Assembly: GCA_046293175.1 (NCBI GenBank) | Contig: JBKBPM010000001.1 | Span: 511,847-575,846, forward strand | DNA from: Minisyncoccia bacterium | GTDB lineage: Bacteria > Patescibacteriota > Minisyncoccia > Phycocordibacterales > UBA918 | DNA: 64,000 nt | Reading direction: 5' to 3' | Shown here: piece by piece, positions 58,344-58,740 of the stretch | Layout: each line of letters begins with the position of its first letter | Numbering within the stretch: position 1 is the stretch's first letter | The notes under the pieces: generated by a model | What the model was told of the DNA's origin: nothing | What the model saw: only the letters and a program-made list of their open reading frames with translations | Database searches by the model: none | Position numbers and translations under genes: made by a program

Positions 58344-58461
58344 GGCCCTATCGTCTAGCGGCTAGGGAATGAAAAGCGGGTGGCTTTTCATCCGATCGCG
58401 AAGACATGAGCGAATCGTCGATGTTTACGAGGCGATAGGGACAGGATTCTCATTCCTGTAA
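58344..58461 (+). pseudogene. disrupted tRNA-Glu copy (5' two-thirds only, with an about 72-nt insertion in the D-arm)
   Basis: ggccctatcgtctagcggctagg, then the insert gaatgaaaagcgggtggcttttcatcc...cgaggcgataggg, then gacaggattctcattcctgtaac. No T-arm or acceptor 3' strand. The intact gene follows 29 nt downstream. Confidence 0.55.
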
Positions 58462-58489
58462 CAATACTGAAAAAACCATTTTAAAAAAT

Positions 58490-58561
58490 GGCCCTATCGT
58501 CTAGCGGCTAGGACACAGGATTCTCATTCCTGTAACCGGGGTTCGATTCCCCGTAGGGTCA
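58490..58561 (+). tRNA. tRNA-Glu(CTC)
   Basis: Acceptor GGCCCTA/TAGGGTC, D-arm GTC-TAGCGGCTAG-GAC, anticodon stem CAGGA/TCCTG with loop TTCTCAT, T-arm CGGGG-TTCGATT-CCCCG. Confidence 0.85.
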
Positions 58562-58569
58562 CGAGTTTA

Positions 58570-58606
58570 AGAAAAAAGTCCGAGTTTATCTCGGGCTTTT
58601 TTCTTA
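58570..58606 (+). terminator. rho-independent terminator after tRNA-Glu
   Basis: aaaaaagtccgag-tttat-ctcgggcttttttctt. Confidence 0.7.
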
Positions 58607-58740
58607 GACTCCTTGTGATGCCTTGGAGGCAGAATCGAAAGGCGCAATAAAGCGAAGCGAAATGAGCCAGGGTCGTGAGCGATATATTTTCATTAATGAA
58701 AATAATCGACTCCTGACCGATTCCCCGTAGGGTCACCAAA
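58606..58740 (+). repeat. tRNA-associated repeat F downstream of tRNA-Glu, ending in a 19-nt duplicate of the tRNA-Glu 3' end
   Basis: ...ccttggaggcagaatcgaaaggcgcaataaagcgaagcgaaatgagccagggtcg...ctgaccgattccccgtagggtcacc. cgattccccgtagggtcac equals the tRNA-Glu 3' end. Confidence 0.5.

Follow-up and report, generated by a model that had tools for sequence, protein, structure and literature searches.

Why should a bacterial tRNA gene stand between copies of its own two ends? The question is raised by the gene for tRNA-Glu(CTC) in a 64-kb stretch of DNA from a Minisyncoccia bacterium (64,000 nucleotides, analysed as a whole and called the window below), where both ARAGORN (58490-58562) and Rfam (58490-58561, 60.6 bits) recognize an intact gene on the plus strand that does not encode CCA. 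Three exact repeats surround it: 58342-58366 is identical to 58488-58512 (25/25; two leader nucleotides and nt 1-23 of the tRNA), 58441-58462 to 58515-58536 (22/22; nt 26-47) and 58544-58562 to 58718-58736 (19/19; C56 in the T-loop to C74), the last copy lying 156 nt beyond the 3' end of the gene. By an arithmetic estimate, one 19-mer repeat would be expected ~3e-7 times, and three exact repeats, each of 19-25 nt and all packed into 400 nt, greatly exceed what chance would give. A sequence-only reading of the locus had described an intact gene preceded by an interrupted 5' copy, with a 72-nt insertion in the D-arm, and followed by a repeat ("repeat F") closed by a 19-nt duplicate of the tRNA 3' end; all of this is borne out, the upstream blocks being separated by 74 nt (58367-58440) where the gene has 2 (net +72) and both ends of the gene being duplicated around it.

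The upstream half of the locus, all on the plus strand, opens with the 5' duplicate (58342-58366) and continues with the inserted sequence (58367-58440), which we call a U-type element. It consists of hairpin A (58369-58391), hairpin B (58394-58416), hairpin C with the conserved loop GATGTTTACGA (58417-58433) and an end strand, 58430-58443, complementary to the duplicated 5' end at 58343-58356. The motifs that had been pointed out within it are found where they can be read directly: the hairpin atgaaaagc/gcttttcat at 58369-58377 and 58383-58391, gcgaagac at 58398-58405 and gagcgaatcg at 58408-58417. The rest of the interrupted gene copy follows as an exact copy of the anticodon arm and variable loop (58441-58462), and a spacer (58463-58489) with a second copy of the leader (ACCATTTTA..AAT) leads to the intact gene; the leader similarity ACCATTTTA lies at 58332-58340 and again at 58475-58483. 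Because the upstream copy comprises only nt 1-23 and 26-47, without the T-arm and the 3' acceptor strand, its exons would not make a complete tRNA, and an intron-containing or split tRNA gene was rejected. None of the open reading frames overlapping the locus has a Pfam match. Further upstream, TGCTATTAT at 58317-58325 (+) reads as an extended -10-like box and may be a promoter; a consensus promoter scan did not call it, and a TGCTATGAT box also lies upstream of tRNA-Glu in contigs L123, L131 and L132. If this promoter is real, the U-type element would be transcribed as a leader of the tRNA.

The downstream half, also on the plus strand, begins with a 22-bp hairpin (58563-58611) that has an A-tract on one side and a T-tract on the other and looks like a two-way terminator, followed by a degenerate inverted copy of the tRNA-Glu 3' end (GTGA..CC..GAATCGAA, 58615-58639), a core (58640-58717) and a tail (58718-58736) that is the exact C56-C74 copy and is followed by CAA. 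Within the inverted copy, 7 of the 8 nt of GAATCGAA (AATCGAA) match the complement of the T-loop of this very tRNA, which is the unusual TTCGATT and not TTCGAAT.

The same layout recurs at other tRNA genes of the window. The neighbouring tRNA-Ser(CGA), which is divergent to tRNA-Glu and is called intact by ARAGORN and Rfam (58170-58258, minus strand), is followed by what we call a D-type element (58046-58169, minus strand), recognized by its fold and by a covariance model of the three-helix D-type core, R1 (58046-58147, 78.6 bits, E 5e-20). It comprises a hairpin H (58145-58164), GAGGGATTCGAA, a three-way-junction core and a tail (58046-58068), 100 nt downstream of the gene, that copies the tRNA-Ser 3' end at 23/23 positions. 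The same downstream arrangement is found at tRNA-Leu(CAA), tRNA-Tyr and tRNA-Cys, with R1 matches at 12462-12562 (66.6 bits), 17928-18029 (94 bits) and 27423-27514 (minus strand, 78.6 bits), respectively. The shared core, GGGATTCGAA-RA-[helix]-TGTACYGAA-nn-TGTAA-nn-TTCGAATCC, was counted 5 times in the window, where 0.05 occurrences would be expected, and each window element is predicted to fold into a long rod. A further R1 match at 51527-51612 (49.1 bits), a partial one at 34519-34588 and a marginal one at 41964-42061 (E 0.088) adjoin no tRNA; these copies keep hairpin H, P2 and P3, are without the tRNA-derived arms and lie near ftsZ/trxB-like and rpsA-like genes, a gene context with no common theme. 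R1 thus finds 5 full and 2 partial matches in 64 kb, and the window holds at least 8 of these elements in all. It also encodes gyrA, topA, clpB, infB and ftsZ, which mark it as DNA of a cellular bacterium, and its repeat elements, as well as two loci with common flanks, match contigs labelled Saccharibacteria and other Patescibacteria.

Several features of the window were recorded alongside. The tail of the tRNA-Leu(CAA) copy is closer to tRNA-Leu(TAA) than to the adjacent tRNA. The tRNA-Ser and tRNA-Glu genes are surrounded by an IS1595-type transposase (55161-56027, minus strand), a P-type (copper-like) ATPase (56078-58012, minus strand), whose start codon lies 34 nt downstream of the end of the tRNA-Ser element, and a DUF305 protein (59545-60213, plus strand), for which an exact-protein look-up returned no record. 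A gene called tRNA-Ile(TAT) by ARAGORN (54306-54394, plus strand) is 89 nt long and of class-II shape, with a long variable arm, a Ser-like D-loop and the anticodon loop CTTATAC, and may be an unusual AUA decoder; similar "Ile(TAT)" calls in L086 and L093 adjoin D-type elements. A terminator-like hairpin of 41 nt occurs twice (28275-28315 and 29091-29131; 88% identity, 816 nt apart), bracketing tRNA-Leu(TAG), tRNA-Lys(CTT) and one open reading frame.

Outside the window, a scan for the core motif covering one genome per species found it in at least 116 genome-contig stretches, and among the matches listed nearly all are Patescibacteria, among them Saccharibacteria and Kaiser-, Pacei-, Nomura-, Parcu-, Taylor- and Lloydbacteria. 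The motif had zero matches in a collection of viral contigs, which thus gives no sign of carriage by phages. Of 122 copies among the matches listed, 82 have a tRNA on the same strand 85-355 nt upstream of them, and these tRNAs are of 12 identities (Ser 46, Tyr 9, Val 5, Cys 5, Arg 4, Ile 3, His 3, Lys 2, Gln 2, and Asn, Asp and Ala 1 each). The sequence-only reading was right to see insertions at a tRNA hotspot; the same architecture is found at tRNA genes of at least 12 identities, in more than 100 contigs of Patescibacteria. The order of parts is constant: after the tRNA come a terminator-like hairpin; a strand complementary to the 3' strand of that tRNA's acceptor stem and to nt 73-75; hairpin H, often with a YGGGR loop; the complement of the 3' strand of the T-stem and of the T-loop; GAARA; helix P2; GUACY; hairpin P3 with the loop UGUAA; and the tail. 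Two palindromes result, one formed by the tRNA end, the terminator hairpin and the inverted strand, the other by the inverted strand, the core and the tail.

The tRNA-derived parts follow the neighbouring gene: the tail is identical to the adjacent tRNA from T54 to N73 in 53 of 76 analysable pairs, and the inverted strand changes with tRNA identity. In 24 cases the inverted strand is a closer match to the gene-proximal copy of the tRNA end than to the tail, and in 9 the reverse holds; the gene-proximal match includes the trailer nt 74-75, and in several elements the inverted strand is perfect while the tail has diverged. Covariation strongly supports the structure of the core. In an alignment of 68 cores, three helices compared with 500 shuffles and slid controls had 86.3% of cells paired (71.0% in shuffles) and a covariation score of 0.360 (0.129 in shuffles), a value reached by 0 of 500 shuffles and by none of the slid controls. 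Wobble pairs, compared as an indicator of RNA or DNA structure, number 63 for G.U and 45 for A.C, counts compatible with either. In the gathering-threshold scan of the window with Rfam 15 only tRNAs pass, and E-value scans of 17840-18050 and 58020-58760 add to the tRNAs only weak matches at chance level.

Tandem arrays of D-type elements are present, and some tails carry more than the tRNA end. CCA is found in 14 of 76 tails and in 3 of 76 tRNA genes, and the tails with CCA usually precede a conserved palindrome. This palindrome, A(G/T)TCGTGCTAGCACGA, stands just 3' of CCA in L012, L034, L041, L068, L121 and L138, at tRNA-Ser and tRNA-Glu loci of distant lineages; in L012 it also lies directly 3' of the intact tRNA-Ser, a position that looks like the undisturbed flank. 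Its occurrence in both places fits insertion with duplication of nt 54-73. D-type elements are themselves interrupted in places. In L088 (oriented ~480-1830) a transposase gene of the IS110 family (Pfam DEDD_Tnp_IS110 and Transposase_20), which has ATAGAACCCTG inverted ends, interrupts a D-type element precisely at GGATTCGA^AAAGG, so that such elements are targets for another mobile element. In L008, L016, L060 and L090 the tail is split after TTCGAATCCCT by a conserved insert of ~75 nt (ACAATAAAATAAGGAA...CCATATATCAT), after which the rest of the tRNA-Ser end follows with CCA; such inserts make up a third mini-insert family within tRNA-like sequence.

The upstream arrangement has a family of its own. 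When all collected loci were searched for duplicated 5' ends, the mirror image of the downstream layout emerged at ten other tRNAs (Ser, Leu), where nt 1-18 or 1-22 of the tRNA, up to the D-loop, are repeated 90-155 nt upstream and are followed by a long hairpin, more hairpins and usually a strand complementary to the duplicate. We define U-type elements by a 5' duplicate reaching to the D-loop or D-arm, hairpin A, hairpin C with the loop GATRTTTAYGA and the complementary strand, at a position 45-80 nt upstream of the tRNA; copies are found at tRNA-Glu, Ser, Leu and Ile, and 58342-58443 of the window has all of these defining features. The first hairpin, GG-ATGA...TCAT-CC, is common to the window insertion and the tRNA-Ser elements of L046 and L110, and hairpin C is common to the window, L046 and L110 (Ser) and L007 (Ile), its stem covarying between GTC/GGC, TTGCC/GGCAA and GCACC/GGTGC.

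The sequence-only reading had proposed comparing the same locus in related genomes. A scan of metagenomes with the 3' part of tRNA-Glu(CTC) returned 33 contigs, among which the elements recur or are missing, individual contigs having both, one or neither. L123 and L139 contain the whole window arrangement, including the anticodon-arm copy and the second leader copy, with a few substitutions, one of which changes a G-C pair in the stem of hairpin B to G-U. L120, L124, L137 and L148 contain diverged U-type elements with a paired change in hairpin B (TCGC/GCGA versus TCTGC/GCAGA) and an anticodon-arm copy shortened to AGGATTCTCATTC; one consensus fold is common to all six contigs.

Downstream of tRNA-Glu the cores are more varied: canonical D-type elements are found in L121, L133, L138, L140, L142 and L144, a second type of core in L124, L126 and L128 and a third in L118, L135 and L145, the remaining contigs having no downstream element. 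Repeat F (58612-58737) has no match to R1 at E<=10. Its architecture is that of a D-type element (terminator hairpin, degenerate inverted tRNA end, folded core and exact tail), its core lacks the TGTAA junction, and it aligns in patches with the third core type (GAATCGAAAG, AGCGA, ACTC[CG]TGACCGA..TTCCCCGTA). By this architecture and these patches of sequence, and not by R1, we assign repeat F to the D-type family as a divergent member; the earlier claim that the inserted sequences belong to repeat families is upheld accordingly, for the insertion as a U-type element and for repeat F under this assignment. The three core types at tRNA-Glu and repeat F show that one architecture is common to several cores.

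Genomes with an identical tRNA-Glu differ in the presence of the elements. The U-type element is present in the window, L120, L123, L124, L137, L139 and L148 and absent from L117, L131, L141, L143 and L146. The empty locus of L131 has its downstream flank and its promoter-like box in common with the filled loci of L123 and L148, and the empty locus of L146 has its leader in common with that of L137, where ~30 nt of the leader are also duplicated. At tRNA-Leu(TAA) it is the window that is empty, and L100 that has an insert of 97 nt between 22-nt repeats of tRNA nt 1-22, with the end of the same HNH gene upstream in both. In the window this gene, an HNH endonuclease open reading frame at 27717-28211 (+; Pfam HNH/HNH_3), overlaps tRNA-Leu(TAA) (28190-28276) by 22 nt; in L100 the end of the same frame is followed by tRNA nt 1-22, the 97-nt U-type insert and the intact tRNA. 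At tRNA-Cys the same downstream flank is found in five contigs: a single unit with a decayed tail is present in the window, two identical units ending in the same decayed tail in L030, and one unit with a perfect tail in L100, L020 and L040; the copies of the window and L020 differ by compensatory changes. The empty sites may be original, or may have lost their element when the direct repeats recombined and deleted what lay between them.

These sequences form a Patescibacteria-wide superfamily of elements, 74-156 nt in length, strongly folded and free of open reading frames, that is linked to the two "elbow" loops of tRNA genes. At U-type elements the gene's 5' end is copied as far as the D-loop and the element stands behind this copy, whereas D-type elements follow the gene's terminator and end in a copy running from the T-loop through nt 73-75; the layout is direct, inverted, core, direct, and the element folds into a rod together with its duplicate. 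Duplication of the terminal segment means that the tRNA gene is always left whole. On balance we lean slightly towards reading them as a family of non-autonomous insertion elements that target tRNA ends and leave the gene intact. Such elements would be mobile now or would have been so recently; they would insert at a tRNA loop, the terminal segment of the gene being copied by fold-back or template switching at hairpins (the terminator, the T-arm or the D-arm), a mode of copying that would give the direct-inverted-direct pattern. The invariant unpaired bases of the core may be the binding site of a putative trans-acting protein, and the U-type element would probably be transcribed as a leader of the tRNA. 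The 1.09 Mb of loci yielded neither an autonomous partner nor an enzyme, nor a protein of the kind postulated for the core. A search for autonomous versions by tails repeated more than 400 nt away returned only L012, L033 and L088 and no plausible parent element; L012 and L033 have 1-1.8 kb of ordinary genes between tRNA-Ser and the element with its tail. Core-less palindromes (GGATTCGAATCC) that might be intermediates are also absent from the 1.09 Mb. The duplicated segment is 18-25 nt long, includes the leader in L137, L046 and the window, and reaches nt 47 in the window; this variable length, extending past the insertion point, does not fit a simple staggered-cut target duplication. A tRNA-primed retroelement was rejected on the grounds that the partner of the inverted strand is the trailer encoded by the gene (nt 74-75) and not CCA, and that the 5' duplicates include leader, both of which point to copies made from DNA or a precursor and not from mature tRNA.

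The elements might instead be structured RNA modules, useful to the host and embedded in tRNA precursors, an explanation that we consider rather unlikely. Copy and complement of the tRNA end would then either mimic an acceptor/T-stem helix, leading to excision by the tRNA-processing enzymes, or base-pair with the genuine tRNA end and so regulate how it matures. Such a function would be in keeping with ~17 invariant unpaired bases and strong covariation across phylum-level lineages, with the higher frequency of CCA in tails than in tRNA genes, and with the U-type element standing between a promoter-like box and the tRNA, where it would be leader. The compensatory changes between the tRNA-Cys copies of the window and L020, and an inverted strand whose pairing with the 3' end of the gene (nt 74-75 included) is kept perfect even where tails have decayed, indicate selection on structure and a function beyond selfish spread. 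It sits poorly with the presence and absence of elements among genomes with identical tRNA, with at least 3 unrelated cores in one architecture, with the common tandem pile-ups and decayed copies and with the terminator-like hairpin that separates the tRNA from D-type elements; moreover, nt 73-75 are also paired, leaving no free NCCA-like end as expected of a tRNA mimic, and no clear strand asymmetry was found in the wobble pairs. The scars of repeated insertion and excision that the sequence-only reading proposed would be attachment sites of larger islands moved by an integrase, an origin that we judge very improbable. Integration into tRNA genes classically leaves direct repeats that extend from the T-loop to the gene's 3' end, such a repeat is present, an IS1595 transposase and metal-resistance genes lie nearby, and L012 and L033 have their 1-1.8 kb of genes between tRNA-Ser and the element with its tail. 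The repeats at tRNA-Glu, however, are 156 nt apart with neither an integrase nor a family-matched open reading frame, what lies between them is a conserved structured element and not a remnant, 5'-end duplications and inverted copies are not integrase products, and the same layout occurs at 12 tRNA identities; the idea of scars is abandoned because each duplicate is the integral end of an intact, ORF-less element of 74-156 nt with an inverted copy.

A purely local accident, in which a tandem duplication of tRNA-Glu decayed and acquired hairpin-rich filler with no family or mechanism behind it, would account for the presence of leader and nt 1-47 in the upstream copy, both to be expected of a tandem copy of the gene in decay; that the 74-nt insert shares hairpin C and its layout with elements at tRNA-Ser and tRNA-Ile elsewhere, and that the downstream layout recurs more than 100 times, makes such an origin quite improbable. 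The probability that a collapsed or chimeric repeat produced the locus is practically nil: assemblers can be misled by short exact repeats, but the whole interrupted copy is present with a few substitutions in the independent contigs L123 and L139 and in diverged form in L120, L124, L137 and L148, which excludes the assembly error that had been named as the possible refutation.

Read as gene-sparing insertion elements, the family can be compared with MITEs, REP/BIME, Correia, Rickettsia RPE and ERIC sequences, which are likewise small, non-coding, hairpin-forming, multi-copy and intergenic, polymorphic between relatives and sometimes targets of IS110-family elements. Here, however, the arms are inverted and direct copies of the adjacent tRNA terminus instead of constant ends, the flanking repeat (18-25 nt) is bounded by the tRNA loop and the gene end, and the core, a three-way junction, is conserved and keeps many unpaired bases invariant; unlike MITEs, the elements have no matching autonomous IS in the 1.09 Mb (the IS110 of L088 sits inside an element and is not bounded by one) and no target-site duplication of fixed length, the repeats being 18-25 nt and reaching nt 47 in the window. 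Islands and prophages integrated in tRNA genes (attL/attR) share the direct repeat from T-loop to 3' end and the restored gene, and differ in that the inserts described here are of ~100-155 nt without integrase, have a 5'-end (D-loop) version and an inverted copy, and use one core for many tRNA identities. Snap-back at quasi-palindromes forms tandem inversion duplications in Salmonella, which resemble our elements in their direct-inverted-direct order and in having one junction on a hairpin (here the terminator); our elements span tens of nucleotides, are recurrent and family-specific instead of sporadic, and always hold a conserved core at the second junction, no core-less palindromes occurring in the 1.09 Mb. 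Non-canonical introns and split tRNAs of archaea have short structured insertions at D-loop and T-loop positions, whereas the present hosts are bacteria and the copies are incomplete and non-functional beside an intact gene. The tRNA-like handles of mascRNA/MALAT1 and of tRNA punctuation also place an acceptor/T-stem-like helix at the end of a non-tRNA RNA; the predicted helix of our elements extends over nt 73-75 and has no T-loop/D-loop elbow. Other candidates were set aside: bridge or seek RNAs of IS110/IS1111, given that no DEDD transposase gene is present at the locus and that the IS110 of L088 interrupts an element; and hammerhead or other known ribozymes, tmRNA, the SRP Alu domain, integron attC sites and TnpB guide RNAs, to whose junction order and consensus, judged from primary sequence, the elements do not conform and for which Rfam gives no support.

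Neither Rfam 15 nor the literature searched on Patescibacteria/CPR, tRNA, repeats, MITEs and tRNA-like RNAs contains a description of the D-type or U-type elements. A covarying three-way junction tied to tRNA termini and absent from these sources points either to a new gene-sparing mechanism of insertion or to a new tRNA-linked RNA biology. The genomes of Patescibacteria are among the smallest of bacteria, yet many of their tRNA genes are flanked by these elements, and the partial tRNA copies will confuse tRNA annotation, the prediction of islands from att sites and the assembly of Patescibacteria genomes. As a tentative possibility, the elements may constitute a new class specific to Patescibacteria, either of mobile elements templated by tRNA ends, in which the inverted strand would guide the element to a tRNA terminus and insertion would rebuild the gene, or of structured RNAs of tRNA precursors, in which the copied tRNA ends would serve as handles for processing or regulation. 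If either form is true, the tRNA loci of minimal genomes would be organized in a way that has not been described.
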